NCBI GenBank assembly: GCA_963761705.1 | Contig: CAVXHK010000003.1 | Coordinates: 577,455-641,454 of the forward strand | Length of the DNA: 64,000 nt | Source of the DNA: an uncultured Verrucomicrobiae bacterium | Lineage (GTDB): Bacteria; Verrucomicrobiota; Verrucomicrobiia; Chthoniobacterales; JAATET01 | Direction of reading: 5' to 3' | Notes under the pieces: generated by a model | The model's input: only the letters and a program-made list of their open reading frames with translations | Told to the model about the DNA's origin: nothing | Databases searched by the model: none | Part shown: positions 9,054 to 33,786 of the stretch, piece by piece | How the letters are laid out: the number at the start of each line of letters is the position of its first letter | Numbering within the stretch: position 1 is the first letter of the stretch | Position numbers and translations under genes: made by a program

Positions 9054-9058
9054 GTCCC

Positions 9059-15320: not shown

Positions 15321-15424
15321 AACCGGAAGGTAACGAAGGGAACGAGGAATACAGAATTTGGCTCGGAAAGTGTGAGTTGCTCGAGGAGATGCCGAAGGCA
15401 GGCACCTCTATGTTACCTTTGGTT
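15321..15424. repeat. REP-like palindromic element, degenerate copy A
   Basis: Left arm AACCGGAAGGTAACGAAGGG pairs with right arm GTTACCTTTGGTT, which overlaps the MMPL stop codon. It shares the GAAGGTAACGAAGG core with copies at 21034-21124 and 28460-28535. Confidence 0.5.
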
Positions 15425-18448: not shown

Positions 18449-19686
18449 CGGATCGCGAATTTGCGGGGATCGCTGCGGGCGGTGGCGAGGTGGCCGACAG
18501 CTTTGAGGAGTTGGCGGCTGTACGTGCGGGTCGTGAAAGCTCCGGAAGCCATGCAGCCGAGGTGCTTGGCGATGTGCGCGTCGATGAGTGTGGTGACGCG
18601 ATTCGGGTGGGCGGCGCGCCACTTGGCTCCGGTCTCGTGCATGGCGAAGATGTGTCCGCTGTAGAAATACTCGATGAATTGCATCCAGCAGGTGAGGTGG
18701 TGATTCATCCAATTGCCGTAGGCGGAGAGAGCGTGGTCTGGTTTTTTTTCGGCGAGAAGGTCGGCGAGTTTCTCGGCGGAACCGAGGGCGGTGATCATGC
18801 CCGGTGAGAGCATGGGGTCGACGAACCCGAACGCGTCGCCGATGGCAGCCCAATTCTCGCCGGTGCCGCGCTCGGAGATGAGCTGGTAGTTCGCGTAGGT
18901 CTGGACGGGGGTGATTCGACGGGCGTTGCGGGCTTCATGGCTGAGAGCAGGGTCGTGGCGAAGGACGTGGTCGAGACGGGCTTCGGGGGTGTCGCCCAGA
19001 TCGGCGGCCCGGCGGTTGTCGAGGACGATACCGAAGGAGGTGCAATCGCGAAGCGGGATCCGCCAGGCCCAACCGTGGTCGAGGTGAATCGCGGCGATCT
19101 GGCCGCGGGGCGACTCGGCGGTAAAACCTTCGTAGTGGGCGAAATGCGAGACGTCTTTGCGCGGACCGAATTGGGCGGGGATCCGGAGAAGACGGGCGAA
19201 CGCGCGGCGGCGTCCCGTCGCGTCGATCAGGAGATCGGGCTGGCGGTCGTGCCAATCGGGGACCTCGGATAGGCTTTCGGGAGTGAGCTCGACGCGGCCA
19301 TCGGTGGCCTGAACGTCGGCTCGACGACGGATCACCGTGGCTCCGGCATCGCGGGCGGTTGAGGCAAGCAGGTCGTCGAACTTGGGGCGGGGGATGTTGT
19401 AGGAGTAAGTCGGGAGGTAACCGCGAACGGTCTCGAACGTGAAGTCGATGGCGTCTTCGGGAAACGGGACGAACGATGCGCCGGGCTTGCGGAGGCTGAA
19501 GGCGGCGACTTTCTCCTCGATGCCGAGGCGTTGGAGAATCGGGACGACGGCGGGGATGTTTGACTCTCCGACGATCAGGTCGGGCCGTTGGCCTTCGTCG
19601 AAGATTGCGACATCGCAGCCACGCCGGGTGGCGAAGGTCGCGAAGGCGGATCCGGCGGGCCCGCCGCCGATGACTGCGATTCTCAT
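18445..19686 (-). CDS. FAD-dependent halogenase-like oxidoreductase
   Basis: N-terminal GGGPAGS dinucleotide motif and a WxWxIP motif (GWAWRIP, nt 19054-19071), the signature that separates flavin halogenases from monooxygenases. ATGA overlaps at both ends. Confidence 0.7.
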   Translation of the reverse strand: MRIAVIGGGPAGSAFATFATRRGCDVAIFDEGQRPDLIVGESNIPAVVPILQRLGIEEKVAAFSLRKPGASFVPFPEDAIDFTFETVRGYLPTYSYNIPRPKFDDLLASTARDAGATVIRRRADVQATDGRVELTPESLSEVPDWHDRQPDLLIDATGRRRAFARLLRIPAQFGPRKDVSHFAHYEGFTAESPRGQIAAIHLDHGWAWRIPLRDCTSFGIVLDNRRAADLGDTPEARLDHVLRHDPALSHEARNARRITPVQTYANYQLISERGTGENWAAIGDAFGFVDPMLSPGMITALGSAEKLADLLAEKKPDHALSAYGNWMNHHLTCWMQFIEYFYSGHIFAMHETGAKWRAAHPNRVTTLIDAHIAKHLGCMASGAFTTRTYSRQLLKAVGHLATARSDPRKFAIR

Positions 19687-21026
19687 GAGACCGGGGTGCG
19701 TCTGATTTTGCCGCTGGGGGTTTTTGGGATTTCGGTGACGGTGCGGAATTCGAGCGGGACCTTATACCGAGCGAGGTGTTCGCGACAATACCGGGAGAGG
19801 ATCGCGGCGGATGGCGGATTCCCCGGGTCGGAGGGGAAGATCTCAGCGGCGGGGACGGAGCCGAACTGCGCGCTCGGTCGCGGGTAAACGCGGGCTTCGC
19901 GGACGGCTTCGTGAAGCGTGAGGACGGCTTCGATTTCTTCGGGAAAGCACTTGAGGCCGCCGACGTTGATCACGCAGGCGGTGCGGCCTTCGAGATAAAG
20001 AAATCCCTCGGCGTCCTGCCGAGCGAGGTCGCCGGTCGCGAACCAACCGTCGGCGTCAAGGACCTCGGTGCGGCTGCGCGGAGGTGAAAGGTAGGCGTCA
20101 AAGAAACCGGGGCCGCGGACGTGGAGGGGGCCGATGCCCTGCGGGTCGGGGTCGCGGACTTCGACTTCGAAACCGGGTTGCGGACGCCCAACGGATTCTG
20201 GACGCCCGGCGGGGTCGTCGAGGTTGAGGCACGGGAGACCGCATTCGATGATGCCGAGGCCCTGGCTGGGCGCGAGGCCGTAGCGGGTGGCGAAGGCGCG
20301 CGAGGTCTCGGCGGGAAGACGGGCGGAGGTGGAGACCGAGAGGCGAAGGGTCGGCCAAGGATCGCTGGATTTTTCCGCGGCGAGAAGTTGGTGGTGGAAC
20401 GGGGAGCCGTAGAAGACGGTGGCGTCGTGTTGGCGGGCGGTGGCCAGAATATCTGCGGCGAAGTGGCGATCGGGGAGGACGGTGGCGGCTCCATTCCAGA
20501 GGTAGAGCATGATCGAGACGGCGAAATGGTGTGCCATCGGGAGGATCCAGACGATGCGGTCGTCGGGGGTGATGCGGAGTCCGGCGTTGGCGGCTTCGAT
20601 GCGGGCGAGGAGGGTTTCGTGGGAGATGAGGACCCCTTTACTCGTGCCGGTGGTGCCAGAGCTGAAGCGGATGAAGGCCGGGTAAATTTGCTCACGCGAA
20701 GCCCTGAAGTCGCGAAGGGAAAGGGCAGCGGAATTGTCGAGAACGAGATCGGCCCCGGTGGTCGCGAGGAGCCGCTCGCGCTCGGGTGGAGCGAGTTCCG
20801 GGGGGATGGGGATGAAGGTGGCTCCGGAGCGGAGGATGGCGAGGGCTTGGACGATGTAATCGACGCCGTCGGGGTGGAGGAGGGCGATGCGGGGGACGGG
20901 CGGGAGGGTGGCGGCGGCTTCGGCGGAGAGGCTGTCAAGTTCGCCGTAGGTGACGGAGCGGGTGGGCGTCAGGATCGCTGGGGATGAAGGGATGGCGCGA
21001 CGGAAGATTTCTGTGGTTAGGTTCAT
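19683..21026 (-). CDS. AMP-dependent synthetase/ligase (adenylating enzyme)
   Basis: Start at ATG 21026 (MNLTTEIF...). Contains FSSGTTGTSKGV (A3 core), GWFATGD and PKTPSGKIRR (A10). The 773-aa track ORF's P/A/T/S-rich N-terminus is off-frame reading through the autotransporter 3' end. Confidence 0.85.
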   Translation of the reverse strand: MNLTTEIFRRAIPSSPAILTPTRSVTYGELDSLSAEAAATLPPVPRIALLHPDGVDYIVQALAILRSGATFIPIPPELAPPERERLLATTGADLVLDNSAALSLRDFRASREQIYPAFIRFSSGTTGTSKGVLISHETLLARIEAANAGLRITPDDRIVWILPMAHHFAVSIMLYLWNGAATVLPDRHFAADILATARQHDATVFYGSPFHHQLLAAEKSSDPWPTLRLSVSTSARLPAETSRAFATRYGLAPSQGLGIIECGLPCLNLDDPAGRPESVGRPQPGFEVEVRDPDPQGIGPLHVRGPGFFDAYLSPPRSRTEVLDADGWFATGDLARQDAEGFLYLEGRTACVINVGGLKCFPEEIEAVLTLHEAVREARVYPRPSAQFGSVPAAEIFPSDPGNPPSAAILSRYCREHLARYKVPLEFRTVTEIPKTPSGKIRRTPVS

Positions 21027-21033
21027 GCGGTTT

Positions 21034-21124
21034 TTGAACAGAAGGAAACGAAGGTAACCAAGGGGCGAAAATGCAATGAGGCGTCCCCCGTATTTCTTCG
21101 TTTCCTTCGTTACCGTTTGTTCAA
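21034..21124. repeat. REP-like palindromic element, copy B
   Basis: GAAGGAAACGAAG (21041-21053) pairs perfectly with CTTCGTTTCCTTC (21096-21108), and TTGAACA pairs with TGTTCAA at the outer ends. The loop core GGGGCGAAAATGCAATGAGGCGTC is 21/24 identical to copy C. It fills the gap between the autotransporter stop and the ligase start. Confidence 0.6.
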
Positions 21125-24100
21125 AACTGGATTCCGAGGCTCGCCGATACGGTGTGGCTGGTGAGGTCTTGGCGACCGAAGTCGGCATTGTAGTAAACGG
21201 AAGTGTTCCAGCGGTCGCCGAGTTGCGCGGTGACGCCAGCGCCCGCGAAGACACCGTCGCGACCGGGGTCGGCGGTGGCGGTGTCGAAGCTGGGGCCGGA
21301 TCCGGCGTCGAGGGCGGATCCGATGTTGCGGGAATTGTTGAGGAATTCGTGCTGCCAGAGGAGGCGGATCTCCGGAATGAGGCGGATGTTCGTTGTGAGG
21401 TCGATTGAGTAGGCGACGCGGCCGCCGAGGGTGGAGCGGAGACTGTGGACGTCCTGCTGATCGACGCGGAGGTCGAGGCTGTCGGCGTTGGTTTCGGTGA
21501 AGGGGGCGATGCCGAGGTAGGTGTATTGGGCTCCGGCGATGGGGCCGAAGGTGAAATTGCCGATGGTCCAGTCTTTACCGAGGTTGAGGGCGGCGCTTGC
21601 TTGGCCGGTCTCCTGGTCGCTGCGGGCCAGGCGGTCGACGGTGGAAAACTCGATTGCGCGGCGGACGCGGGCGCTGCTGAAGCCGCCGGAGATGACGCCG
21701 TCGGCGTAGTAGCCTTCGTGGGTGCAGCTGGCATAGGTGCCGAAGAGGGCGGAATTGATGACGGTGGAGCCGCCGCCGTCGTAGTCGGCGGTGGTGCCTT
21801 GGTAGCCGGCGAAAACGCCGGTGGTGAGGCCGTCGCGTTCGCTTCCATTCCAATCGTAGTCGGCTCCGATGAGGAAGCCGCCCGAGTCGAAACGGTGGTT
21901 GGGGACCTGGTTAACGCTGGTGACGCGGGCGAAGATGCCGCTGCCCATGGCCCAAGCGGTCCAGTCTGTGGGGGTGTTGGCGGCGGGGTCTTTGGGGTCG
22001 GCAAAGGCCTTGCCGTCCTTGTCGAAGGTGAGCGGTTCTTCGTCGAGGCCCATGAGCTGGAAGCCGCGGGCGCCGAGCCGGGCGGAGCTGAGGCGTTGGT
22101 TGACGAGTTGGGTGCGGGTGAAGGTTTCCTGAATCTGAATGTTGGCGATGCTCTGGTGGAAGGCGGGCGAGATCTGGTCGAAGGCGGCGGGGTAGCCTTC
22201 GGCGGTCAGAAAGTCGAGAGCGAGGGAGACGCGGTTGCGGTCGGGGTCGGACGAATCGATGAAGCTGTCCAGGGCGCGGGCGACGTTGCGCTGGTTCTGA
22301 GTTCCGGCCACGAGCGTGTAGCTGGCCGGCGCGATGAGGAGAGTGCCGGTGCCGGAGTCGTTCAAGAAGCGACCGCGGTAACGGGAGGGATCGGCGAAGG
22401 TGATGCGGTCGAAGTCGCCGGTGATGCGGTCGGCGAAGAGGAGGGGGATTCTTTGGCCGAAGGCAAACGACTTGCCGAGATTGATGGTGCGGAGGGTCCC
22501 GGCGAGCGCCGCGGTGCCGGTGACGAGGAGACGGTCGAAGGCGGCGGGGCTGGCAACTTCGAGATCGAAAGTGCCGGTGGCGGTCTGGGCGAAGTCGCCG
22601 TTGATGGAGAGGGTGCCGGGACTGTTGCCGGGGGAAAGAGTGCCGCGGTTGGTGACATCGCCGATGAGGAGGCCGGTGCCACCGAGGAGGGCGGTGCGGG
22701 CGACGTCGACGCCGCCGGGCGATCGAAGGGTGCCGTTGACGAGGAGACCGCCAGACTCGACGAGGGTGGCGCCGGCGACGTCGAAGGTATTGCTCGTGAT
22801 CAAAGAGCCGGGGCCGGTCTTGCGGAGATCGCCGGGAGTGCGCAGGAGGTCGCCGGTGATGAGGCTGGTGCCGCCGAGCGCGTTGAGTTCGCCGGAGGTG
22901 ACGGTGAGGGTGTTGAAGATTTGGAGCGAGCTGCCGGGCTGGAAGCGGAGGGAGTTAATGGTGTTGTCCTCGGTCGGGGTGCCGGTGGTGACGCGGCCGT
23001 CCACCGTGAAGTCGGCGGTGGTCGCGACGTTGACGGGATTGCTGTTTTGGAGGAGGGGGCCGGAGGTGACGGGCGGCGGCGTGAAGGTGACGAACAGGCG
23101 CTTGCCCGCGATGCGGAAGATGGGGACGAGTTGTTGAAGGCGGTTGCCGAGGAAGTCGGTGATGGCGTCGAAGCGCGCGAGATTGCGGGCGGTGAGGATG
23201 AGATACTCGGCGGCGGGGTCGAAGCGGGCGGTGTTGTTGAAGCGGAAGCGAATGGGATCGGACAGGCTCAGTCGACCCCGGGCGTTGACGAGGTCGGTTT
23301 TGTTGCCGAGATCGGTGGCGATCCGGCCTCCACGGTAGTCGAGCGAGTTGATGTTCAGCGTTCCCACCGGGTCGAGAGTGCCGTCGTTCAACGTCACCGC
23401 CGCGCGGCGACCGAGGGCGGAGGAATTGGTCGTCCGAACGGTCCCGGCGTCGATGGTGGTGCCGCCGGTGTAGCTGCTTTGGCGGGAGAGCGTCAGCGTG
23501 CCGGCCCCGGTTTTGGTGAGTCCGCCGGCGCCGGAAATGGGAGCGTTCAGGCGAAGGGTGGCGTCGGCTTGCAGGGTGCCGCCGCGTTTTTCGAGGACGA
23601 AGAACCGGCTCGTTGCGAGGGCGGCGGTGTTTTGCAGGGTTCCGCCGTCGAAGGTCACGAACGTGCTCCGAGCGCCGAGGTTTTCGTCGCGGCTGATCGA
23701 GAGGGTGCCTTTGGAAAGATGGGTGCCGCCGGAATAGGTGTTGGTGCCGGTGAGGATGGTGCGGCCAGGGCCGCTGTGATTGACGGTGACGGTGCCCGAG
23801 ATCGTGATGGGCGCGCCGCCCGGCGTGCCGTCGGTGGTGAACGCGTAGTTGGACTGCGAGTGGTCGAAGTTCAGCGTGGCCATTCCGTCTCCACCGTTGA
23901 TTTCCCCGACCGAGAGAATGCCCGCGGTGCCGCCGGTGCCGACGTTGATCGTGCCGATGGAACCGCTTTCTTCGGCGAGGGCGATGACGGGAGCGCGGAC
24001 GGTGCCCCCGGTAAGGTCGAGGCGACCGGTGCCGCCGGAGCCGACGGAGAGACCGTCCGAGTTGGTCCAAGAGCCGCCGCTGACCTGAACGGTGCCGGTC

Positions 24101-25146
24101 GAGCCGGGTTCGACGCCGAGGAAGCTGATCTGGTTGGTCACGCTGCCCGTCCCGCTGACCTCGAGGATGCCTTCGCCCTCGAAACCGAGGATGAGGTTGG
24201 ACGCGAGGGTCCACGAACCACCGCTGAGCGATACCGTGCCGATGGCGTCCTGATCGAAGCCGACGATGGCGCCCTGGCTGTCGACCTGCCCGGTGCCGCT
24301 GATTTCGAGCGTGCCCATGCCGCGATTGCCGACGGTGAGGGTGTCGGAGTTCGTCCAGGTCCCGCTGGAGATGCGGGCGGTGCCGACGGAACCTTCGAGG
24401 AAGCCGAGGAAGCCGGTGGCGTTCGTGACGGTGCCGCCGTTGGTGACCTCGAGGGTGCCGTTGCCGCTGGACCCGATGACGATGGCGCCGTTGCTGGCGA
24501 GGGTTCCCCCTGATACTCGCGCGACTCCAGTGGATCCGGTGTCGCCCGCAATGCCGACCACGACGCCGGTGACCGAGCCGCCGGTCGGAACGTTGAGCGT
24601 GGCGTTGTCTCCCGGGTCGAAGCCGACGACGATCTGGCCGGAAGGGGTGTTGATCGAGCCGGAGACGGCGAGGGTGCCGGTGCTGATGACGGTGTCGCCG
24701 GTGTAGGAGTTGGCGGCGGAGAGGGTGAGGGTGCCGGGACCCTGTTTGGTCAGGGAACCTGAGCCGGTGACCGGGGCGGAGATGGAGGTGTTGCCAGCGG
24801 CGGTGGTGAAGTTGGTGTTCCCAGCGATCTCCAAATTGCCTGACCCCGAGGCCGTGACGGTGTAGCCCGGAGTCTGGAAATCGACGTCGGCGGGGTCAGC
24901 GGTGAAGCCGTCGGCGATGGTGGCGGTGCCAGCTGTACCGGCGAAGACGGCGTCAAGCCCGCCCGCCCAAGTTGCGTTGGCGGTGCCGGCGGTGTTGGTC
25001 CAGTTGGTGGTGGCGACGTTCCAGATGCCGGTGCCGCCGTCGATGGTGCCATTGGCGGTAGTGTTGGCTCCGTCCCAGAACTGCTGAGCGTCCAATGTTG
25101 CGATGGTAAGCGCCGCTAAGAGGAGCAATGAGAATTTGGTTGTCAT
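21121..25146 (-). CDS. autotransporter outer-membrane protein with autotransporter-associated beta-strand (PATR) repeats
   Basis: Signal peptide from ATG 25146 (MTTKFSLLLLAALTIATLDAQ). It has a dozen or more G-T/S-rich 'GxGTLTLSxxNSYTGxTxIxxGTL' repeats and a C-terminal beta-barrel domain ending ...SLGIQF with a terminal Phe. The + ORF 21445..24513 is its antisense shadow. Confidence 0.85.
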   Translation of the reverse strand: MTTKFSLLLLAALTIATLDAQQFWDGANTTANGTIDGGTGIWNVATTNWTNTAGTANATWAGGLDAVFAGTAGTATIADGFTADPADVDFQTPGYTVTASGSGNLEIAGNTNFTTAAGNTSISAPVTGSGSLTKQGPGTLTLSAANSYTGDTVISTGTLAVSGSINTPSGQIVVGFDPGDNATLNVPTGGSVTGVVVGIAGDTGSTGVARVSGGTLASNGAIVIGSSGNGTLEVTNGGTVTNATGFLGFLEGSVGTARISSGTWTNSDTLTVGNRGMGTLEISGTGQVDSQGAIVGFDQDAIGTVSLSGGSWTLASNLILGFEGEGILEVSGTGSVTNQISFLGVEPGSTGTVQVSGGSWTNSDGLSVGSGGTGRLDLTGGTVRAPVIALAEESGSIGTINVGTGGTAGILSVGEINGGDGMATLNFDHSQSNYAFTTDGTPGGAPITISGTVTVNHSGPGRTILTGTNTYSGGTHLSKGTLSISRDENLGARSTFVTFDGGTLQNTAALATSRFFVLEKRGGTLQADATLRLNAPISGAGGLTKTGAGTLTLSRQSSYTGGTTIDAGTVRTTNSSALGRRAAVTLNDGTLDPVGTLNINSLDYRGGRIATDLGNKTDLVNARGRLSLSDPIRFRFNNTARFDPAAEYLILTARNLARFDAITDFLGNRLQQLVPIFRIAGKRLFVTFTPPPVTSGPLLQNSNPVNVATTADFTVDGRVTTGTPTEDNTINSLRFQPGSSLQIFNTLTVTSGELNALGGTSLITGDLLRTPGDLRKTGPGSLITSNTFDVAGATLVESGGLLVNGTLRSPGGVDVARTALLGGTGLLIGDVTNRGTLSPGNSPGTLSINGDFAQTATGTFDLEVASPAAFDRLLVTGTAALAGTLRTINLGKSFAFGQRIPLLFADRITGDFDRITFADPSRYRGRFLNDSGTGTLLIAPASYTLVAGTQNQRNVARALDSFIDSSDPDRNRVSLALDFLTAEGYPAAFDQISPAFHQSIANIQIQETFTRTQLVNQRLSSARLGARGFQLMGLDEEPLTFDKDGKAFADPKDPAANTPTDWTAWAMGSGIFARVTSVNQVPNHRFDSGGFLIGADYDWNGSERDGLTTGVFAGYQGTTADYDGGGSTVINSALFGTYASCTHEGYYADGVISGGFSSARVRRAIEFSTVDRLARSDQETGQASAALNLGKDWTIGNFTFGPIAGAQYTYLGIAPFTETNADSLDLRVDQQDVHSLRSTLGGRVAYSIDLTTNIRLIPEIRLLWQHEFLNNSRNIGSALDAGSGPSFDTATADPGRDGVFAGAGVTAQLGDRWNTSVYYNADFGRQDLTSHTVSASLGIQF

Positions 25147-25838
25147 TGGCGATTCGTTGCATTCGGTCTGCCCGATTTTCTGAGTCGTCCTGCAGCAGTC
25201 TCGGACGGGCTTTGCCATCCTCCGCGAGTTTCTCGAGATCGGAGCGAAAAGGTCAGGGCAATTCCTCCGATCACGAGGAGGGCAATCACGCCCGGCTCAG
25301 GGACTGCGCCGGTGACAATGGGTTGGTTGAATTCGGTCTCGATGGCGTGGTCGACGAGGGTGAGGGTTGAATTTGGCCCGTCGTCGACGTAGGTGAAGCG
25401 CGCCCAGCCGAAGCGGGTATTGTCCTCGTCGGCACCGGTCATGAGTCCGATGAACCCGGTCGCGCCGCCGCCGTAGCCGCCGACGGTCTCGTTGAAGAGG
25501 TCCTGGTAGAAGAAGCCGTTGTTCTGGGCGGAGAGGAACGTCTTGTCGATGGTGACGCCTGGTCCGATGAGTGGGAGACCTTCGTTCGGGTTTGCGCGGA
25601 TGAGGCCGGTGAAGCCTTCGACCTCGGGCGAAGCGGGATCGTTGGAGAGGAAGAGGAGGCGGGCGTCGTTGCCGGGGCCGCCGCTGTAGTTGAAGAAGGC
25701 GTCGCCGCCGGTGGGGGTGATCGTGAGGTTGACCGGGCCGGAGTAGATGATGGCGGCGTGGGTGAATGGCGCGAGGGGGAGGATGAGGATGAGGCCTGCA
25801 GCGGTCGCGCCGAGTAATTTGAATGGCGTTGCGATCAT
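25143..25838 (-). CDS. PEP-CTERM domain protein
   Basis: Signal peptide and a C-terminal VPEPGVIALLVIGGIALTFSLRSR sorting motif (PEP + TM + basic). Its stop overlaps the autotransporter ATG as ATGA. Confidence 0.75.
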   Translation of the reverse strand: MIATPFKLLGATAAGLILILPLAPFTHAAIIYSGPVNLTITPTGGDAFFNYSGGPGNDARLLFLSNDPASPEVEGFTGLIRANPNEGLPLIGPGVTIDKTFLSAQNNGFFYQDLFNETVGGYGGGATGFIGLMTGADEDNTRFGWARFTYVDDGPNSTLTLVDHAIETEFNQPIVTGAVPEPGVIALLVIGGIALTFSLRSRETRGGWQSPSETAAGRLRKSGRPNATNRQ

Positions 25839-25860
25839 TTTGACGGTTCGCGGCGGCGGG

Positions 25861-27441
25861 TCAGCGTCGGAAGCGGCCGAAGGTGTAGCGGGGGCGGCGG
25901 GTGGTGTTGTCGTTTTCGACGAAGGCTTCGGTGTAGTCGTCGAAGTCGAAGTAGTCGTCGAGGGCGGGGAGGTTGAGTTGCCGGAACCGGGCGTCGCGGG
26001 CGTTGGTGAAGCGGGCGGCCCGGAGACCGGTGCGGTCTTCGCCCCGGGTCATGTAATAGAACGTGTCGCCGGAGAAGTGCCGGAGGATGAATCGCTGGCG
26101 GTCGGGGCCGATGCGCATGATCAGGCGATTGCCGCGGGCTTGGAGGCGGACGGGGCCGTAGAAGCCGCTCCGGTAGCGGCCGGCGTAGGAGGAGAGGGGG
26201 CGCGGTGGGGTGAAATCGGCGGGGCGGCGGCGGTAGTCGGTTGGGTCGCGACCAAGCTGGTCGGCAGCGAGTTCCGCGAAGCGCTCGTTGGCGAAGGCGA
26301 CCCAGTTGCGGCTGAGCTTGCCGAGGAAGAGGAAGTCAGCGAACGAGAAGTCGAGGCCTTCCGGGATGCCGTGCGGAGCGGAGTTGCAGAGGACGGCAAT
26401 GCCGAGATTTTCGGTTGGGTAAAGCGCGACGGCGGAGCGGACGCCCAGGAAGAATTCGCCGGAGTGGGACCAAACGGTGCGGTCGAATCGGGTGCCAACG
26501 TTCCAGCCCAGACCATAGAATCCGCCAGTGGTCTTGATCTGGGGGCGGTGGGTTTCGCCGAGGGGCTGGGCGGCAATGATCTGCCGGCCCTCGAAACGTC
26601 CGCCGTTGAGCTGGAGTCGCAACCAGCGCGACAGATCGCGAACGTTGGTGCTGACGCCGCCGGCGGGGGCTTGGGCGTCGGCGTTGCGACGGAAGCGGGC
26701 GACCCATTTTCCGTTCATGATAAAATCGTTGTCGTCCGGGGTATGCATGGCGGCCCGGTTGGGCGCGGACCGAAAGTCGGCTGAGCGCATGCTGGTGGAG
26801 GTCATGCCCAGAGGGTCGAACAGGCGGCGTTCCGCGATGGTGGGCCAGTCGGTGCCGGCCGCGGCAGCGGCGGCGAGTCCGCCCACGGTGAGCCCCATGT
26901 TCGAGTACTCGTAGCGGGAGCGGAATCCGCCGAGGAGGGGAAATTGGCGGAGGCGGCGGACGATCGGCGCTTGGGAAAAGCCGAGGTTTTCGAGGAGATC
27001 GCCGGCGTGAGGGGGGAGGCCGGTGCGGTGACTGAAGGCATCGCGGAGACTGACATTCCGGGTGGCGGCGGGATTGCTGAGGCGGAAATTGGGGAGGTTC
27101 CTGATGAGGGGCTCGTCCCAGGTGACGGTGCCGTCGCCGACGAGTCCGGCGACGATGGTGCTGGAGATGGGCTTGGAGACGGAGGCGATCTGAAAGACCG
27201 TGTCCGGCGTGACGGGCTGCGAGGTTCCCACTTTGCGAACACCGTAGCCCTTGAGGAAGATGACCTCGTCATTGTGAACGACCGCGATGGCCATGCCCGG
27301 AATCCCGGTCGTGCGCATGGCGCGCTCGGCGACGGCGTCCATGCGAAGGACGGCGGTTTGGACGGCTTCGCGACTGAGCTGGGCCGAGAGCGACGAGATA
27401 GCAAGGAGGCTGGCGAGAGTGGTGGCGAGGCGGGTTTTCAT
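25861..27441 (-). CDS. serine hydrolase, beta-lactamase/PBP4* family (secreted)
   Basis: Signal peptide and an SxxK motif (ASVSKP) about 70 aa in; 526 aa with a C-terminal extension domain. Confidence 0.8.
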   Translation of the reverse strand: MKTRLATTLASLLAISSLSAQLSREAVQTAVLRMDAVAERAMRTTGIPGMAIAVVHNDEVIFLKGYGVRKVGTSQPVTPDTVFQIASVSKPISSTIVAGLVGDGTVTWDEPLIRNLPNFRLSNPAATRNVSLRDAFSHRTGLPPHAGDLLENLGFSQAPIVRRLRQFPLLGGFRSRYEYSNMGLTVGGLAAAAAAGTDWPTIAERRLFDPLGMTSTSMRSADFRSAPNRAAMHTPDDNDFIMNGKWVARFRRNADAQAPAGGVSTNVRDLSRWLRLQLNGGRFEGRQIIAAQPLGETHRPQIKTTGGFYGLGWNVGTRFDRTVWSHSGEFFLGVRSAVALYPTENLGIAVLCNSAPHGIPEGLDFSFADFLFLGKLSRNWVAFANERFAELAADQLGRDPTDYRRRPADFTPPRPLSSYAGRYRSGFYGPVRLQARGNRLIMRIGPDRQRFILRHFSGDTFYYMTRGEDRTGLRAARFTNARDARFRQLNLPALDDYFDFDDYTEAFVENDNTTRRPRYTFGRFRR

Positions 27442-27529
27442 GTTGATTGGTGGGTATGGGTCGAGGTGGTGCCGATGCTACGGGTTTTATCCGCTACTCT
27501 GTCGATAAAACCTATTATTACTCGTCGAA

Positions 27530-27558
27530 TGACATCAATTGTTGACGGGTGACATCGA
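27530..27558. promoter_or_regulatory. direct repeat TGACATCAA-N11-TGACATCGA in the divergent promoter region (candidate LytTR box)
   Basis: Two 9-mers, 8/9 identical, start 20 bp apart just upstream of or overlapping the LytTR regulator start. LytTR regulators typically bind paired 9-bp direct repeats about two helical turns apart. Confidence 0.3.
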
Positions 27559-27578
27559 CTGGATTGAATGCCGCTCCG

Positions 27579-28454
27579 ATGAGGGCGGTGGACGAGGCGA
27601 TTTTTTGGCGTAGGACGGCGGCGTTGCTGCTCGGAGCGTCCGTTGATGGGGGGATCAATCGCATTCTGAGGATGCTCGGCGAGGCCCACGGGGCGGATCG
27701 GGCGTGGTTAATTCGCTACGATTGGGGGTTTACGCATTTTTGGAACACGCACGAGTGGGCGCGGGGTGAGGCGAGCGCGTACGTGGGCGAGCTCCAGGGT
27801 ATCCCCGTGGAGCTCGCTGCGTGGTTGCACGAGAGCCTGCTGAACGATCGCCCGGTGTATCTGGCGGATACGCGGAAGATGCCCCGGCGGGCGCGGGCTC
27901 TGCAGGCCGAGTTTCGGCGGCAGGGGATCAAGTCGCTGCTGGCGGTGCCGGTCTTTTTTCGGGGACGCCTGGCGCTCCAGATCGGTTACGACACCACGCG
28001 GGAGAGGGCGAGTTGGACGGAGGAGGACGTTGAACTTCTGCGGAGGGTGGGTCGGTTATTTGCGCGGAGGCTGCTCGCGTATTCGCGCGCGCCGGCCTTT
28101 GCGGAGGGGATCAAGCCGGGGGAGCCAGCGGTGGTGCATCTGCAGAATGCGTCGGAGCATCGCGGGGTTGGGATGGCGGAGATCACGCACCTGGCAGCGC
28201 AGGGGGATTACAGTCGGGTGCATTTGCTCGGCGGCGGGACGGCGTTGGACTCGCGGAGCCTGAAGCACTGGGAGAGCGAGTTGTCGGAACGGCAGTTCGT
28301 TCGGGTGTCGCGGTCGGTGATCGTAAACTTTGCTTACGTGGAGGGTCTGGACCGGCGGGGAGGGGCCTGGCGGCTGGCGGTGCGGGAAGTCGAAGGAGCG
28401 ATCGCCGTAGGTCGGAGCTATCGACCGGGACTGCGGCAGCGGATGGATTTCTGA
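27579..28454 (+). CDS. GAF-domain / LytTR DNA-binding transcriptional regulator
   Basis: The C-terminal ~100 aa (ITHLAAQGDYSRVHLLGG...FVRVSRSVIVNFAYV) match the LytTR domain, and the N-terminal ~170 aa are GAF-like. I prefer ATG 27579 (MRAVDEAIF...); the track's GTG 27549 is possible. Confidence 0.7.
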   Translation: MRAVDEAIFWRRTAALLLGASVDGGINRILRMLGEAHGADRAWLIRYDWGFTHFWNTHEWARGEASAYVGELQGIPVELAAWLHESLLNDRPVYLADTRKMPRRARALQAEFRRQGIKSLLAVPVFFRGRLALQIGYDTTRERASWTEEDVELLRRVGRLFARRLLAYSRAPAFAEGIKPGEPAVVHLQNASEHRGVGMAEITHLAAQGDYSRVHLLGGGTALDSRSLKHWESELSERQFVRVSRSVIVNFAYVEGLDRRGGAWRLAVREVEGAIAVGRSYRPGLRQRMDF

Positions 28455-28459
28455 TTTTG

Positions 28460-28535
28460 AACAGAAGGTAACGAAGGGGCGAAAAGGCAACGAGACGTCA
28501 TCCGGATTCCTGCCTTTCCTTCGTTACCTTCTGTT
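28460..28535. repeat. REP-like palindromic element, copy C (probable bidirectional terminator)
   Basis: Perfect 18-bp inverted repeat AACAGAAGGTAACGAAGG (28460-28477) / CCTTCGTTACCTTCTGTT (28518-28535) with a 40-nt loop. It fills the convergent gap between the LytTR gene and the FAD-oxidoreductase gene, and the right arm overlaps that gene's stop codon. Confidence 0.7.
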
Positions 28536-29569
28536 TAAATCGCATCGATCGCGAGCCGACCGGCGGCTAGGGCGGTGCCGATGACGCGGAGGGCGGCTTG
28601 GGCTTCGTGGGTGGCGCTGAGGCAGCGACCGGCGGTAAGGAGCTTCGGGTTGCTTTCGGATCGGAGGGCGCGGGCGGGGATCTGACAGGGGCCGACGGGG
28701 TAGCGAAACTTTGGGCCGTGGATCGTCTCGCGGAGCTCGATGGGCCAGGTCGAGACCGCGACGGCGTCGGGGAACGTGGCGCCAGTGAGGATGTCGTCCG
28801 CGGTGAGTTGGTATTGGCCGTGGGCGAGGTGGCTCTCGCGGATGCCGAGCTGGATCGGGAGGGTCTTAATTTGAACGAATTCGAAGCTGGGGAGTGAGTG
28901 GAGCTCGCCAATGACTTCGTGGGCGACTTCCAGGGCGCGGTCAAAGTCTTCGTGCGGGAGGTCGATCGTGACGTAGGTCTCGCCGACGCTTTCGCGGAGG
29001 GCGGTGCCGGGGGCAACGTGGCGGAGGTGATTCGCGATCTGGAGACGAAGGTTCGGGGTGAGGGGGGGAGCGTCCGCGAGGGTGAAAATGATCGAGGGTC
29101 GCTGGAGGGTCTTCGCGAGGTCGGATGCGTCCGGGCTCAGAGCCGCGGCACCGGTCGTGTCGATCACGACGGATGCGGTCTCGAGAGTCGTGGAGTTGAG
29201 ACGGACGCTGAGGTTTTTCGTCTCACTGACGAGCGTGGCCGCGAGCTGGGCGAAGGCGGCGGGGTTGGTGGGAAGGACGTCGAGGCGGCCCAGCCGAAGG
29301 GGTGGCTCGGCGCCGCCGATGCGGAGGAGGCGTTCGGCGAATTCCCGGGGGAAGCCGTCGTGGGCGTATTCGAAGCCGGGTTTTTCGCGGATGTGGTAGA
29401 GGCCGCAGATGGTGTGGACGAGAGCGTTGGCGGCGTTGCCTCCGAGTTGGTGGGTGCGCTCGACGAGGGTCGTTCGCGCTCCGGCGCGGGCGGCGGTGGT
29501 GGCGGCGGCGATCCCGGCTGGGCCTCCGCCGACGACGAGGACGTCAGGCTGGTCGGGGGAGCGGTGCAC
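28535..29569 (-). CDS. FAD-dependent oxidoreductase (FAD_oxidored-like)
   Basis: VLVVGGGPAGIAAATTAARAGARTTLVE dinucleotide-binding N-terminus; 344 aa; last gene of operon 33152->28535. Confidence 0.7.
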   Translation of the reverse strand: MHRSPDQPDVLVVGGGPAGIAAATTAARAGARTTLVERTHQLGGNAANALVHTICGLYHIREKPGFEYAHDGFPREFAERLLRIGGAEPPLRLGRLDVLPTNPAAFAQLAATLVSETKNLSVRLNSTTLETASVVIDTTGAAALSPDASDLAKTLQRPSIIFTLADAPPLTPNLRLQIANHLRHVAPGTALRESVGETYVTIDLPHEDFDRALEVAHEVIGELHSLPSFEFVQIKTLPIQLGIRESHLAHGQYQLTADDILTGATFPDAVAVSTWPIELRETIHGPKFRYPVGPCQIPARALRSESNPKLLTAGRCLSATHEAQAALRVIGTALAAGRLAIDAI

Positions 29570-30893
29570 CGAGAAGGTCTTCGCAGGTGGTGAGGAGGAG
29601 TTTCTCCGCCTCGGTATCGGTGACGCTACCTTCGCGCCAGGTGGTGACGACGGTGAGGTGGCCCTGGTTTTCGTTGCAGAAGACGCCGGAGCCAGGGGGG
29701 TTGCAGAGGGAGGGGACGTGGTAGGCGTTGGTGACGCGCGCGCCGTGCAGCTCGGTGAGATTGGGCGCGAAGGGGCCCGTGTGAGAGTGGAAGAAGCTGG
29801 TGATCTCGCCGTTGAATTGCCAGCGGACCTGCCCCATGTAGGGCCGGGCGGGGAGTCGGCGCATGAGCTGCATCATGGCTCCGAAGGCGACTTCGAGCTT
29901 CTGCCGGGTCATGTCGGCGAATTGCTGGTGGGCGGATCTGGTGGCGTGTTCGAGGGTGCCGAGGGTGTCGCGTTCGAGGCCGAAGAACATGATGCTCATC
30001 CGATTCTGGAAGAAGTTCGCTTTCGCGCCCTTGCGGCGAACCTGGATCGGGATACTGACGACGTAGCGGTCGGGGTCCTGTCCGCGGTCGAGGAAGATGG
30101 CGCGGTGGGCGCGGGCGACGGCGGCGAGGAAATAAGCGAGGTTGAAGAGCGGGCCGGTGAGGGCGCGAGCGCGGGTGCGGATTGTCTCGGATTCGTCGGC
30201 GTTGAACGTCCGGTAGAGGGCGCGGATGCGACCGGGTCGGGCGGTGGGGCCGGCGAGAGACTGGAAACCGAGGCGCGAAAAGCGGTTGAGCCGATCCATG
30301 ATGAGGAAGGACTTCTTGAGGTGATCGAGCAGGGTTGGGAGCGGGTTCGCGTTGGGCGACGGAAGGTCGATGTCGGCGGCTGGTGCCGATGGGTCGGCGA
30401 GTTCCGTGGCGAAATACTCCGCGCCCTTGCCGTCGAAGAGGAGATGGGACCAGGAAAGGATGAGAACGGCGGTTGCATCGGTGCGGAGATAGAGGTCGAG
30501 ACGGAGATTCACCGTGCGATCGGGGCGGGGGGTATTGAGAAGCTCTTCCGCCCAGGTGTCGAACGGAGCGGCGGGGGTGAAGGGGCGGTCAGGGGGAGGC
30601 GAGGCGCTGCGGTCGTGCCAGAACTGAACGGGAAGAGGGTGATCGCCGGAAATGGGATGCCAGCGGGCCTCGGAGGTGAGGAGGCCTCGGTTGATGCGGG
30701 CGTGGAGAAGAGGATGGACCGCGGCGAGGCGCGTGGCGGCGGACTGGAGAGCGTCGAGGTCGGGGAGGCGGTCGAGTTCGATGCGGCTTTGGCTGACGAG
30801 TTCATCCTGGCCGGTGCGGCGCATCAGCTCGTTGACGGATAGGACGAAGGCGTCGGCTCCGGTGAGCGGGATGGTCTGTCGCGTGGCGGGCAT
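29544..30893 (-). CDS. stand-alone condensation-domain-like acyltransferase (HxxxDG)
   Basis: 449 aa, with SWSHLLFDGKG (HLLFDG at nt 30429-30446) at the position expected for the NRPS-C / WS-DGAT / PapA5-type catalytic HHxxxDG motif. Confidence 0.6.
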   Translation of the reverse strand: MPATRQTIPLTGADAFVLSVNELMRRTGQDELVSQSRIELDRLPDLDALQSAATRLAAVHPLLHARINRGLLTSEARWHPISGDHPLPVQFWHDRSASPPPDRPFTPAAPFDTWAEELLNTPRPDRTVNLRLDLYLRTDATAVLILSWSHLLFDGKGAEYFATELADPSAPAADIDLPSPNANPLPTLLDHLKKSFLIMDRLNRFSRLGFQSLAGPTARPGRIRALYRTFNADESETIRTRARALTGPLFNLAYFLAAVARAHRAIFLDRGQDPDRYVVSIPIQVRRKGAKANFFQNRMSIMFFGLERDTLGTLEHATRSAHQQFADMTRQKLEVAFGAMMQLMRRLPARPYMGQVRWQFNGEITSFFHSHTGPFAPNLTELHGARVTNAYHVPSLCNPPGSGVFCNENQGHLTVVTTWREGSVTDTEAEKLLLTTCEDLLGAPLPRPA

Positions 30894-30917
30894 CTCTTGT
30901 GCGGCTGAGGTGAGAAC

Positions 30918-31217
30918 TCAGAGTTTCTTCACTTCGTTCAAAGTGACAGGGGGGAGGTGCACCGCTTGGTATTGGAGGACGAGGGCGGTGATGGCTTTGA
31001 TGGTACCGAAATTTTCGGTGGTCATTTCTTCGGGAGGGATGGCGACGCCGAAGCCGTCTTCGATCATCACGAGGAGTTGCATGATGGCCATGGAATCGAG
31101 GCCTGCGGCGAAGAGGTCGGACTCGATGCTGAAATCGGGTGGTGTCTCGAGGAGGTTGTTGGCAATCATTTCGAGGAGCGCGGCTTCAATGGTTTCGGGT
31201 GTGAGATCAGACGGCAT
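30918..31217 (-). CDS. acyl carrier protein
   Basis: Start ATG 31217 (MPSDLTPETIEAALLEMI...), with a GLDSMAIMQL phosphopantetheine-attachment motif; ~99 aa. Confidence 0.8.
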   Translation of the reverse strand: MPSDLTPETIEAALLEMIANNLLETPPDFSIESDLFAAGLDSMAIMQLLVMIEDGFGVAIPPEEMTTENFGTIKAITALVLQYQAVHLPPVTLNEVKKL

Positions 31218-32100
31218 GTGCGGGTGTCGGTGAATGGATGGGATTGAGTCGAAGCGGGTGCTCGGCAAGGAGGCGGGCGGCGGTGGCGGCTCCGGTGTCG
31301 ACAAGGTGCCGGCGGTCGGAGTGATCGCCGAATTTCGGGCGACGGTAGATCGAGCGGTAGTGAACGAGACGTTTGCCTTTGGCCTCGGCGAGTTGAACGG
31401 TGAGGTCCTGGACGCGTTTGAGGATGATGCTGTGGGCGACGTTGATGCCGTCGGCGATGGTGAAATGGGTGCCGCGGTGGGCGAGTTCGGTGTGCTCGGG
31501 GTGATCGGCGGTGTGGATGATGATGGTGTCGATGGTCGGATCGTCGAGGAGGTGAGTCACCGGACTGCCGTTGGCGATGCCGCCGTCCCAGTAGAGCGAA
31601 TCGCCGACGCGCGCTCCGGCGAAGAGCCCGGGGACGGACCAACTGGCGGCGACGAAGTCCGCGATGGGGCCAGCGGTGATGATCTCCGACTGACCGTGCG
31701 TGAGGTTCGCAACGGCGAGGCTGAGCTCGGCGGTCTCGCAGTCCTCGATCCGGCGATCACCGATGACGTCTCGGAGCCGGGCGAGCGCGTGGCGACCGCT
31801 CAGGAGACCGGTGAAACCTCGGAGATTGACGAGCATGGGGAAGCCACGCAAGACGCAGAGCCAATCCCAGAATGAGAGGACCATTTTCGGGTCCATGATG
31901 ATCTCACGGATCCGGGCGGGGGGGAGGCCGGCGGCGTAAAGAGCGGCGACGTACGCGCCGGCGGAGGCTCCGGTGACGTGGGCGGGTGTGATGCCCGCGG
32001 CGACGAGCGTCTCGAGAAAGCCAATGTGGGCGAAGAAGCCGAGGAACGACGCGCTGAGACAGATGGCGATTCGGTCGTTGGAGGGAAGTGCGTTGGTCAC
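31207..32100 (-). CDS. patatin-like phospholipase
   Basis: GASAG (GxSxG) nucleophile elbow and a WDGG catalytic-Asp motif. GTG 32100 overlaps the upstream stop as GTGA. The track's ATG 32169 would overlap the upstream gene by 73 nt. Confidence 0.75.
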   Translation of the reverse strand: MTNALPSNDRIAICLSASFLGFFAHIGFLETLVAAGITPAHVTGASAGAYVAALYAAGLPPARIREIIMDPKMVLSFWDWLCVLRGFPMLVNLRGFTGLLSGRHALARLRDVIGDRRIEDCETAELSLAVANLTHGQSEIITAGPIADFVAASWSVPGLFAGARVGDSLYWDGGIANGSPVTHLLDDPTIDTIIIHTADHPEHTELAHRGTHFTIADGINVAHSIILKRVQDLTVQLAEAKGKRLVHYRSIYRRPKFGDHSDRRHLVDTGAATAARLLAEHPLRLNPIHSPTPAHAV

Positions 32101-33152
32101 TGATCGTTCGGTGATTTGCGATAGAAGGCGAAGACGAGACCGCCGACAAGGTTCCAGACGCTCCAACACGCGAATCCCCCGAGTGAGACGAGCACCGCGC
32201 TTTCCATGGGTATGTCAGCGAGGGCTTCGAGGAGGTATTCGAAGGATTTCTCCCGCACCCCGAGGCCGGCGACCGAGACAGGAAGGGAGATGAGCGCTTC
32301 GACGATGGGCATGACCGAAAGAAATGACGGGAGCGAGACCGGGACGGCGAGCGCGCGGGCGGCGGCGAAAAACGTGAAGTAATACGCAAAGATCGCGACG
32401 AACGAGACCGCGACGGCCGCGAGACTGGAGCGCCATTGGCGGCGCATCTGCGTGAACGCCGCGTGCATGTCGTCGGCAACTTTGCCGAGGCTGGCGGGGA
32501 TCGGGGCCCAGGACGGGATGGGAAATTTCGAGATGAGAACGCACAGCGCAATTCCGACGAGAGCGAACGAAATGTAGCCGATGACGAACCAAAACATGGT
32601 GGCCGTCACGGGGTTTGCCAGAAACAGGTCCGCGCGCGAGACGGTGAAAATGACGGTCGCTGCCAGGAGCGCTCCGAGGCCGCTCATGTGGTCCATGGCC
32701 AGACTCATGAACGCGGTCGTCTTACGGTCGGGGTATTCGCGGATCACGCAGACGGCTTTGGCGGCGTCGCCGCCCGTGGCTCCGATGAGGAAGAGATCGA
32801 AGAAACCTCCAATCAGGTAGATGGCGGTGAGGCGAATCCACGAGAGGCGGAGGTCGAGCATCTCCAGAAAAAAACGCCAACGGACGATCCCAGCGGCGAC
32901 TCCGATGCCCGCGCTGGCGATCGCGACGAGGGTCCACGAGTGATCGGCTTCGGCCAGAAGTGTGGTCATCGCTCCCTGGCGATCGAGATCGGAAAAAATC
33001 CACGCAAGCAGCCCGGCCGAGATGGCAATCTGGAAGAGCGAAATGACGACGCGGCGAACCCGGGATGGCGCCGGAGCATCCTCCGGCGGAGCGAGCGAAC
33101 CGGGTTTTCCGCTCGGTGTGGTCGGCGGGGAATCAGTTGGTGGACTCGTCAT
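32097..33152 (-). CDS. flippase-like / lysylphosphatidylglycerol-synthase TM-domain family (UPF0104) membrane protein
   Basis: About 8 TM helices; N-terminal region VVISLFQIAISAGLLAWIF and IGGFFDLFLIGATGGDAAK are typical of this family. First gene of the operon. Confidence 0.65.
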   Translation of the reverse strand: MTSPPTDSPPTTPSGKPGSLAPPEDAPAPSRVRRVVISLFQIAISAGLLAWIFSDLDRQGAMTTLLAEADHSWTLVAIASAGIGVAAGIVRWRFFLEMLDLRLSWIRLTAIYLIGGFFDLFLIGATGGDAAKAVCVIREYPDRKTTAFMSLAMDHMSGLGALLAATVIFTVSRADLFLANPVTATMFWFVIGYISFALVGIALCVLISKFPIPSWAPIPASLGKVADDMHAAFTQMRRQWRSSLAAVAVSFVAIFAYYFTFFAAARALAVPVSLPSFLSVMPIVEALISLPVSVAGLGVREKSFEYLLEALADIPMESAVLVSLGGFACWSVWNLVGGLVFAFYRKSPNDQ

Positions 33153-33234
33153 GGCTGCGATGATGGACAGGTGAAACGACGAGGCGACGAGGGGCGAGTG
33201 ATTTATTTCGATCGAGGCAACGTCACGTAACCGG

Positions 33235-33658: not shown

Positions 33659-33786
33659 CGATCTGGATCAAGACCAGTTCGGTGGTCGAGTCGTCGTGCG
33701 CGGACGTCCGACGTGGCAGTGAAGGGAGCGTGAGATCGTGTTGCCGAACCAGCGGCTGACGATGAAGAGGAGGCGGGGAATTTGAT

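Follow-up and report, generated by a model that had tools for sequence, protein, structure and literature searches.

The 64,000-nucleotide stretch of an uncultured Verrucomicrobiae bacterium (contig CAVXHK010000003.1) that we analysed, hereafter the window, carries on its minus strand a compact operon in which a carrier protein and a stand-alone condensation-type enzyme are encoded among lipid-related genes. In the direction of transcription it opens with a 351-aa polytopic membrane protein of the LPG_synthase_TM family (PF03706, UPF0104; 32097..33152; Pfam E 2.5e-26), followed by a patatin-like lipid acyl hydrolase (31207..32100; 297 aa; Pfam E 1.7e-22), a 99-aa putatively dedicated acyl or aryl carrier protein (ACP; 30918..31217; PP-binding E 9.5e-13), the predicted condensation-superfamily enzyme, hereafter C-like (29544..30893; 449 aa), and an oxidoreductase of family PF12831 dependent on flavin adenine dinucleotide (FAD; 28535..29569; 344 aa; Pfam E 1.5e-55). 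Pfam supports four of the five genes, the exception being the C-like gene. The reading frames interlock: the GTG start of the patatin gene at 32100 lies over the TGA stop of the LPG_synthase_TM gene as a GTGA overlap at 32097-32100, the patatin stop at 31207 and the ACP ATG at 31217 create an 11-nt overlap, 24 nt separate the ACP and C-like genes, and the 5' end of the FAD gene, which starts with GTG at 29569, overlaps the C-like gene by 26 nt. The mechanically called patatin frame (31207-32169) exceeds the likely gene (31207-32100). A first-pass annotation of this DNA had listed five co-directional genes with these overlaps, together with the motifs HLLFDG (C-like), GLDSM (ACP), GASAG and DGG (both patatin); reading the sequence directly, we found all of them in place, and the tight, overlapping gene structure bears out its proposal of an operon.

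The ACP carries the expected serine within GLDSM, and its scores fell below the cut-off of every NCBIfam ACP model: 20.9 bits against 70.45 for the housekeeping AcpP model (TIGR00517), a weak 31.8 bits against 68 for the DltC models, and 25 bits against 130 for the model ACP_for_OlsHI. Judged by these models, the operon ACP is neither the housekeeping carrier of fatty-acid synthesis nor a duplicate of it. For the C-like protein and 16 of its homologues Pfam returned no family match even at E<=1, and NCBIfam and PDB sequence searches likewise gave no family for the C-like protein. The wax-ester synthase/diacylglycerol acyltransferase (WS/DGAT) model TIGR02946 reached 29.5 bits against a cut-off of 309.95 (E 3.4e-7), over the C-terminal part only, and neither Pfam WES (PF03007) nor DUF1298 (PF06974) matched at E<=1; a WS/DGAT identity was rejected on these grounds. 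Both of the plainer identities against which the first-pass annotation had set its proposal, a WS/DGAT and a duplicated fatty-acid-synthesis ACP, are hence not what these genes resemble.

The HLLFDG sequence, read directly from positions 30446..30429 of the minus strand, corresponds to the HxxxDG catalytic motif and spans H150 to G155. In an alignment of 16 sequences W148, H150, D154, G155 and G157 were invariant; the full motif reads S-H-L-L-F-D-G, with a serine in place of the first histidine of the canonical HHxxxDG, at a position that is not conserved among homologues. We modelled the protein with AlphaFold2 (pLDDT 84, pTM 0.87), and the model displays the two-lobed, V-shaped condensation fold. 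Foldseek returned 303 PDB matches at E<=0.001, the best being AzeD (8s6l; E 1.8e-21, TM 0.72) and the next nonribosomal peptide synthetase (NRPS) cyclisation, condensation and epimerisation domains and TRI3, and the top 50 listed were almost all condensation, cyclisation or epimerisation domains plus AzeD and TRI3. At the sequence level no PDB match was better than E 5e-4; AzeD is 19% identical (an insignificant match, E 0.27), and PapA5 (1q9j) appeared among weak profile matches (E 0.012 over 40 residues, likewise insignificant). On the strength of the model, the protein is predicted to be a stand-alone condensation-superfamily enzyme.

Searching 1.84 billion representative proteins with a HMMER profile of the C-like protein retrieved 1447 relatives at E<=1e-3, with at least 414 representative clusters at E<1e-30. 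Since these include proteins from a Pseudomonadota and a Phycisphaerae metagenome-assembled genome, in addition to a 37% G+C contig (L087), the family is large, is present in several phyla and is uncharacterised; one homologue carries the JGI label diacylglycerol O-acyltransferase. Verrucomicrobiales encode the ACP and the C-like protein as a single polypeptide with the ACP at its N-terminus, which is the donor-side arrangement of the peptidyl carrier protein-condensation (PCP-C) didomains of NRPSs. Such fusions measure 566-597 aa in Prosthecobacter and Brevifollis (L044, 9584-11338; L059, 9605-11341). In L044 the fusion lies amid housekeeping genes, with RtcB/RtcA upstream and PFK and thioredoxin downstream, a placement that suggests a constitutive rather than an accessory-cluster role in settings of this type; in a few Verrucomicrobiales fusion loci a halogenase is directly next.

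Also on the minus strand of the window, 7.5 kb from the FAD gene, begins a second operon, which opens with the only adenylating enzyme nearby, as the first-pass annotation had observed. This class I adenylate-forming enzyme (AMP-ligase; 19683..21026; 447 aa; AMP-binding E 9.6e-45, with AMP-binding_C), which we presume to load the ACP, is followed by a flavin-dependent halogenase-like enzyme (18445..19686; 413 aa; Trp_halogenase E 4e-25), a LolA-like periplasmic lipid carrier (17810..18448; 212 aa; Pfam LolA E 6.7e-12) and a lipid exporter of the MMPL/HAE3-type resistance-nodulation-division (RND) class (15413..17779; 788 aa; MMPL E 2.4e-24). Start and stop codons overlap by 4 nt at the ligase/halogenase junction, where the halogenase starts with ATG, and at the halogenase/LolA junction. 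The closest NCBIfam and PDB relatives of the ligase are fatty-acid, aryl-acid and small-acid CoA ligases; among NCBIfam models it scored highest, at 209 bits (cut-off 476), with long-chain fatty-acid CoA ligases, the amino-acid adenylation model gave 128 bits against 317, and it is 39-44% identical to ligases of the same gene set in the distant loci L085, L088 and L091 described below. The mechanically called ligase frame (19683-22004) extends 326 codons upstream of the ATG at 21026, over the end of the neighbouring autotransporter gene; this extension is an artefact that the high G+C content produces and does not make the protein longer.

The predicted halogenase has both the GxGxxG (GGGPAG) and the WxWxIP (WAWRIP) motifs, and a lysine within RKPGASF is kept in 7/7 displayed sequences of a 25-sequence alignment; from its position we infer that this may be the catalytic lysine, and with it the sequence features expected of a flavin-dependent halogenase appear complete. 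CmlS and QhpG were sub-threshold matches. The best NCBIfam match of the LolA-like protein is flexirubin LolA2 (53 bits against a cut-off of 125), and the MMPL protein weakly matches HpnN, HAE3 and BstA and shares 23% identity with E. coli ApeM across 609 aligned aa (E 4e-7).

The first-pass annotation had proposed that the two operons form one split pathway and had suggested a comparison of synteny across genomes. We scanned one genome per species for the C-like gene, retaining the best 80 of 106 relatives; the scan used a single peptide pattern, so that distant groups lay out of its reach, and 78 of the 80 bear Verrucomicrobiota-lineage names (Chthoniobacterales, Verrucomicrobiales), the exceptions being L044 and L070. 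Co-occurrence was then counted with hidden Markov models at domain-level coordinates in 83 loci, taking as denominators the loci with enough flanking sequence. An ACP was adjacent or fused to the C-like protein in 63/81 loci, with an N-terminal fusion in 22, and the flavoprotein gene was directly downstream in 35/70. These two frequencies indicate that the grouping does not reflect chance.

Among the 35 flavoprotein-linked loci, an AMP-ligase directly followed the flavoprotein in 28/31 and a halogenase orthologue was present in 22/30; MMPL and LolA genes were found in 10/14 and 9/14, a methyltransferase in 17/30 and a polysaccharide deacetylase in 8/19. A patatin gene adjoined the ACP gene, on either strand, in 21/30 of these loci, and LPG_synthase_TM occurred in 5/19, at varying positions and orientations within the cluster. 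The conserved core is therefore ACP, C-like protein and PF12831 flavoprotein, joined by the ligase, the halogenase, often a methyltransferase, and the MMPL/LolA pair. The patatin and the flippase-like LPG_synthase_TM protein, which the first-pass annotation had counted as pathway members, do sit in the cluster, the former as a frequent and the latter as an occasional accessory, but neither belongs to the core.

In Chthoniobacter flavus Ellin428, around CfE428DRAFT_0936, both operons of the window are contiguous. The genes there run polysaccharide deacetylase, two PlsC-type acyltransferases, patatin, ACP, C-like, flavoprotein, AMP-ligase, halogenase and methyltransferase. Two MMPL-LolA pairs, along with an LpxL-type acyltransferase and additional halogenase-like genes, border this block. 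Because of this contiguity, and because the ligase directly follows the flavoprotein in nearly all linked loci, the two operons of the window represent one conserved cluster split by a lineage-specific insertion of about 7.3 kb (21121..28454), in agreement with the earlier proposal. According to Pfam the insertion encodes a 1365-aa autotransporter with PATR repeats (21121-25218, minus), a beta-lactamase-family/DUF3471 protein (25861-27441, minus) and a GAF/LytTR regulator (27549-28454, plus); a 231-aa unknown protein (25143-25838, minus) is encoded there as well. An autotransporter at this position is common only to the window and an 84%-identical relative (L003). The window has a G+C content of 60-66%, and the closest relatives of its proteins are from Chthoniobacter-like Verrucomicrobiota.

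Several proteins of the cluster deviate from their relatives. At 344 aa the flavoprotein of the window is about 70 aa shorter than its orthologues (about 415 aa), owing to three internal deletions; all invariant residues are kept, and the C-terminal GTxxATGEAAG motif is altered to GTALAAGRLA. Such shortening could reflect reductive evolution or early decay. Its predicted model (pLDDT 85) matched only generic two-domain folds of the PHBH/GidA type at TM <0.47, so that modelling and fold searching pointed to no specific function, and homologue searches with the flavoprotein and the ligase returned automatic names only. In the patatin the Ser-Asp dyad motifs GASAG (GxSxG) and DGG are conserved, while the oxyanion motif GGGxRG is replaced across the subfamily by SASFLG or similar SSxLG-type sequences (written L-S/N-S-S-x-L-G), a change that may mark a shift in activity, for example to a transacylase rather than a hydrolase. 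The LPG_synthase_TM protein consists of PF03706 alone (residues 39-325 of 351), without the C-terminal aminoacyl-phosphatidylglycerol synthase domain that accompanies it in MprF.

The ACP, C-like, flavoprotein and ligase genes recur together as a four-gene cassette not only in Verrucomicrobiota but also in metagenomic contigs of 63% (L091) and 71% (L085, L088) G+C. In L091 the cassette, together with a halogenase 38% identical to that of the window, lies amid a genuine aryl-polyene cluster. Besides a ketosynthase that shares 58% identity with E. coli ApeR, that cluster encodes an aromatic ammonia-lyase, a DUF3261 protein and homologues of ApeE, F, G, J, K, L and M. The L085 and L088 cassettes are accompanied by GT2, PlsC, LpxL-type, deacetylase, LPG_synthase_TM, O-methyltransferase, MMPL and three halogenase-like genes, and in L088 LPG_synthase_TM occurs together with the polysaccharide deacetylase. 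In the aryl-polyene-type locus L087 a C-like homologue is situated between an MMPL gene and genes for B12-radical-SAM, GT2, LpxL-type and thioesterase proteins. Within the verrucomicrobial loci, phmmer searches for ketosynthase, chain-length factor and dehydratase gave a clear result only in L075, where the C-like gene is beside a ketosynthase/chain-length-factor pair, MMPL and LolA, and a weak one in L018.

A Binatia locus (L090, 7489-13677) has the ACP/flavoprotein/ligase trio without a C-like gene, adjoining GT2, a 417-aa polytopic membrane protein with no Pfam match and a glycerophosphodiester phosphodiesterase (GDPD). The 417-aa protein, located upstream of the trio, was considered as a C-like candidate and rejected, being a polytopic membrane protein. 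It follows from this locus that the C-like gene is an add-on to a wider module, and the trio may be older than the four-gene cassette.

Two further features of these distant contigs concern their other genes. In L087 (1-21416) several B12-binding radical-SAM genes come after the C-like gene, three with full domains and one with only a weak B12-binding match, and are joined by a SPASM radical-SAM gene, GT2/DUF2062, an LpxL-type acyltransferase and a ketosynthase III gene, an unusual combination. In L085 a Caroten_synth (PF04240) membrane-protein gene (8794-9621) and a radical-SAM/SPASM gene are directly upstream of the cassette, and 2-oxoacid dehydrogenase E1/E2/E3 genes directly downstream.

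Comparison with the literature placed the cluster among pathways that anchor and export acyl groups in the envelope. In the E. coli ape system, ApeH loads the ACP, ApeD and ApeJ attach the lipid and ApeL, M and N export the product (PMC8253772), and the aryl-polyene product of Xenorhabdus is a diacylglycerol-phosphate-GalNAc lipid that bears the aryl polyene as an ester. In gene content the aryl-polyene clusters (E. coli CFT073 apeA-R; PMC8253772; bioRxiv 10.1101/2020.12.19.423268) overlap with the loci described here, which have a putative acid:ACP ligase and an ACP, a methyltransferase, acyltransferases of the lysophospholipid and LpxL types, a GT2 and a LolA-like carrier with an MMPL exporter, and this carrier/exporter pair is present in the window. 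The aryl-polyene clusters differ in their type II polyketide synthase (PKS) core (ketosynthase ApeO/R, chain-length factor ApeC, dehydratases ApeI/P and ketoreductase ApeQ), which has no counterpart in the 64-kb window, and E. coli ape in turn has no C-like protein, PF12831 flavoprotein, halogenase, patatin or LPG_synthase_TM. The window ACP is 25% identical to ApeE (E 3e-4). Direct orthology to the E. coli Ape proteins was rejected for the ligase, and similarity is only remote for the ACP, MMPL and acyltransferases; because it is remote or absent throughout, the cluster of the window appears to be related to aryl-polyene clusters by architecture and shared modules, not by orthology.

A similar logic is known from mycobacteria, where the FadD/Pks/PapA/MmpL pathways for phthiocerol dimycocerosates, sulfolipid-1 and polyacyltrehalose use an adenylating enzyme to load a carrier, PapA5, a stand-alone HHxxxDG acyltransferase of condensation fold, for esterification of an acceptor, and MMPL proteins for export. 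The cluster of the window shares this logic, but is found in a diderm host, with no PKS and with LolA as an added periplasmic carrier. The accessory genes agree with those of the Azoarcus arcuflavin/xanthomonadin cluster, whose gene list comprises a halogenase, methyltransferase, polysaccharide deacetylase, glycosyltransferase, phospholipid acyltransferases, Na+/H+ antiporter, exporter, LolA, AMP-ligase and ACP (PMC3949708). Compared by gene list only, this is the accessory set of Chthoniobacterales loci such as L001 and L084, and the Azoarcus cluster is likewise spread over several loci (PMC3949708). Xanthomonadin/arcuflavin clusters include a XanB2 chorismatase in addition to a type II PKS, and their gene lists name no condensation-type enzyme (PMC3949708). 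The ornithine-lipid pathways OlsHI, OlsBA and OlsF were rejected as models for their unrelated composition (PMC12493201), and neither the OlsB/OlsF N-acyltransferase nor the families of the GH3-like OlsH and the alpha/beta-hydrolase OlsI were found in the cluster. We found nothing relevant in the literature on this gene set or on aryl polyenes in Chthoniobacter and, like the first-pass annotation, which knew of none, found no characterised system with exactly these genes. The cluster is less isolated from known biology than that annotation implied, since the halogenase, UbiG-like methyltransferase, flexirubin-type LolA and MMPL partners, and the presence of the cassette inside aryl-polyene clusters, connect it to lipid-anchoring and export clusters of the aryl-polyene, xanthomonadin and flexirubin type.

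Taken together, we think it somewhat probable that the five-gene operon makes up one half of a cluster of the aryl-polyene/xanthomonadin type, though without nearby ketosynthase genes, whose products build a specialised acyl-lipid of the outer membrane, which may be a pigment-lipid, and export it. In the mechanism that we propose, the AMP-ligase would adenylate a carboxylic acid, most likely aromatic or aryl-derived, and load it onto the 99-aa ACP, a step suggested by gene adjacency and by the aryl-polyene and xanthomonadin precedents. Tailoring of the thioester-bound substrate would then fall to the PF12831 flavoprotein and the WxWxIP halogenase, to which relatives would add a UbiG-like methyltransferase. 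Next, the C-like enzyme, by means of its HxxxDG histidine, would off-load the ACP-bound acyl group onto an acceptor lipid or head group, where a hydroxyl or amine would receive it as an ester or amide; the condensation fold, the N-terminal ACP fusions and the lack of a thioesterase in the core cassette all point to such an off-loading role. As accessories, the patatin could supply or trim a lyso-lipid acceptor and LPG_synthase_TM could flip the lipid intermediate. On the model of ApeM/ApeL, MMPL and LolA would bring the product to the outer membrane. An aromatic substrate would be favoured because of the halogenase, the UbiG- and catechol-O-methyltransferase-like enzymes in relatives, the flexirubin-type LolA and the aryl-polyene contexts.

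A number of observations weigh against this interpretation. Searched with phmmer using Ape, L087 and L091 queries, the window yielded no ketosynthase, chain-length factor or dehydratase; it also contains no ketoreductase, save for an unrelated-looking short-chain dehydrogenase/reductase (5359-6207), and the rest of it is occupied by ordinary metabolism genes. Most verrucomicrobial loci are likewise without ketosynthase, ketoreductase and dehydratase within 10 kb. Nor did the window show a gene for supplying an aromatic acid: a search for a tyrosine/phenylalanine ammonia-lyase found none, and a XanB2-type chorismatase was not searched for specifically. The ligase shows no significant BLASTP similarity to ApeH and matches models of fatty-acid CoA ligases best, the LolA and MMPL similarities to Ape proteins are remote, and the solved structure closest to the C-like protein, AzeD, belongs to a dehydratase, not a transferase. 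In Verrucomicrobiales, moreover, the ACP/C-like fusion is usually found among housekeeping genes, away from any cluster. Finally, the window has none of its relatives' methyltransferase, PlsC, deacetylase and LpxL-type genes, and given these absences and the shortened flavoprotein, its pathway may be reduced or decaying.

One alternative is a pathway of fatty-acid recycling or neutral-lipid synthesis, in which the patatin frees a fatty acid from a phospholipid, the ligase serves as acyl-ACP synthetase, the chain undergoes oxidation or desaturation by the flavoprotein and a C-like enzyme of the WS/DGAT or PapA5 kind makes a wax ester, an acylglycerol or, in a Lands-cycle-like manner, a re-acylated lysolipid. 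E. coli Aas, which joins acyl-ACP synthetase activity to lysolipid acylation, offers a precedent, and the patatin and two PlsC-type acyltransferases are linked to the cluster. The fatty-acid ligase matches, the weak C-terminal TIGR02946 match and the JGI label on one homologue point the same way. The ligase and C-like matches nevertheless lie far under their cut-offs (209 vs 476 and 29.5 vs 310 bits), it is difficult to see what a WxWxIP halogenase and a UbiG-like methyltransferase would do on a simple fatty acyl chain, and the cassette occurs inside aryl-polyene clusters of other phyla; we regard this pathway as unlikely. An aminoacylated or lipoamino-acid head-group lipid, for which the ligase would load an amino acid onto a DltC-like carrier, the C-like enzyme join it to a lipid and LPG_synthase_TM act as the MprF flippase domain, strikes us as distinctly improbable; the first-pass annotation had suggested an unusual acylated head-group lipid or lipoamino acid. 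PF03706 is indeed the MprF transmembrane domain, ligase and carrier resemble DltA/DltC in outline, the ACP has its weak DltC match, condensation-type enzymes typically form amide bonds, and LPG_synthase_TM recurs with the polysaccharide deacetylase in L088. However, the cluster has no aminoacyl-phosphatidylglycerol synthase domain, DltB or DltD, PF03706 is present only occasionally, the ligase scores well below on the amino-acid adenylation model what it reaches on fatty- and aryl-acid ligase models, the conserved partners are a halogenase, methyltransferase, LolA and MMPL, and the composition is unrelated to OlsBA, OlsF and OlsHI (PMC12493201).

A different possibility retains the cluster but assigns the C-like enzyme a tailoring role on the carrier-bound substrate, as a dehydratase, epimerase or cyclase in the manner of AzeD, and leaves off-loading to the patatin or to a PlsC/LpxL-type acyltransferase. 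The patatin/FabD-like fold is able to transacylate, and aryl-polyene clusters attach their product through ApeD and ApeJ (PMC8253772). AzeD, the best structural match, is a stand-alone condensation-family dehydratase that lacks the first histidine of HHxxxDG (bioRxiv 10.64898/2026.07.17.738954), as the equally stand-alone C-like protein does, a precedent that would fit a tailoring function. AzeD acts, however, on a free small molecule in an NRPS pathway, whereas the C-like family is linked or fused to an ACP in a way that mimics a donor PCP-C didomain; the identity between the two proteins is low, and many cassette loci are without a nearby patatin or PlsC gene; L085 and L088 have no patatin. 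Altogether the tailoring alternative seems to us quite unlikely. Least credible, and given almost no weight here, is the notion that the genes are chance neighbours with no shared pathway: the C-like gene does sit among housekeeping genes in Verrucomicrobiales and some Terrimicrobiaceae, but the gene overlaps, the ACP/C-like fusion and a cassette order kept across phyla speak against it, and the synteny already contradicts it.

More broadly, and tentatively, since we consider it possible but doubtful, the ACP/C-like/PF12831/AMP-ligase cassette might be an unrecognised cross-phylum module by which an acid that has been activated separately, tailored by flavoenzymes and often halogenated becomes attached to a lipid anchor of the outer membrane. 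It would then, in Chthoniobacterales, work without a PKS and define a new class of halogenated aryl- or acyl-lipids, and in aryl-polyene clusters it would provide an extra or alternative attachment step. How acyl groups are joined to membrane anchors is so far only partly understood, and if the off-loading role of the C-like protein is true, it becomes a candidate attachment enzyme. A condensation-fold family without a Pfam model is tied here to a carrier, a ligase and a flavoprotein; it occurs within aryl-polyene clusters and also, without ketosynthase genes close by, in Verrucomicrobia of soil and freshwater. The novelty for annotation lies in the enzyme family and the cassette, and clear precedents exist for the overall logic. 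Should the off-loading role be right, an outer-membrane lipid not known so far, which may be halogenated, is to be expected in a phylum that is abundant but poorly studied, and with it a type of cluster that searches keyed to ketosynthases would probably miss. C. flavus Ellin428 has the intact, contiguous cluster, and being cultured and yellow-pigmented it makes the idea directly testable.

Minor observations concern the surroundings of the operon and the window as a whole. A consensus scan detected no promoter-like site, and its 6 terminator-like matches do not exceed the 4.5 ± 2.1 expected from shuffled sequence. The operon is preceded upstream by a 634-bp gap (33153-33786), in which no sigma-70-like promoter was detected; it contains two overlapping plus-strand frames (33235-33612 and 33239-33658; 125 and 139 aa) that may be a gene remnant. 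Over the entire window (1-64000) the plus-strand GC skew is between +0.06 and +0.31 in every 2-kb bin, a very strong strand asymmetry. Third codon positions have a coding-strand skew of -0.53 in minus-strand and +0.21 in plus-strand genes, and the C-rich strand, to which the usual rule would assign lagging-strand synthesis, carries about 74% of the examined codons of the window.

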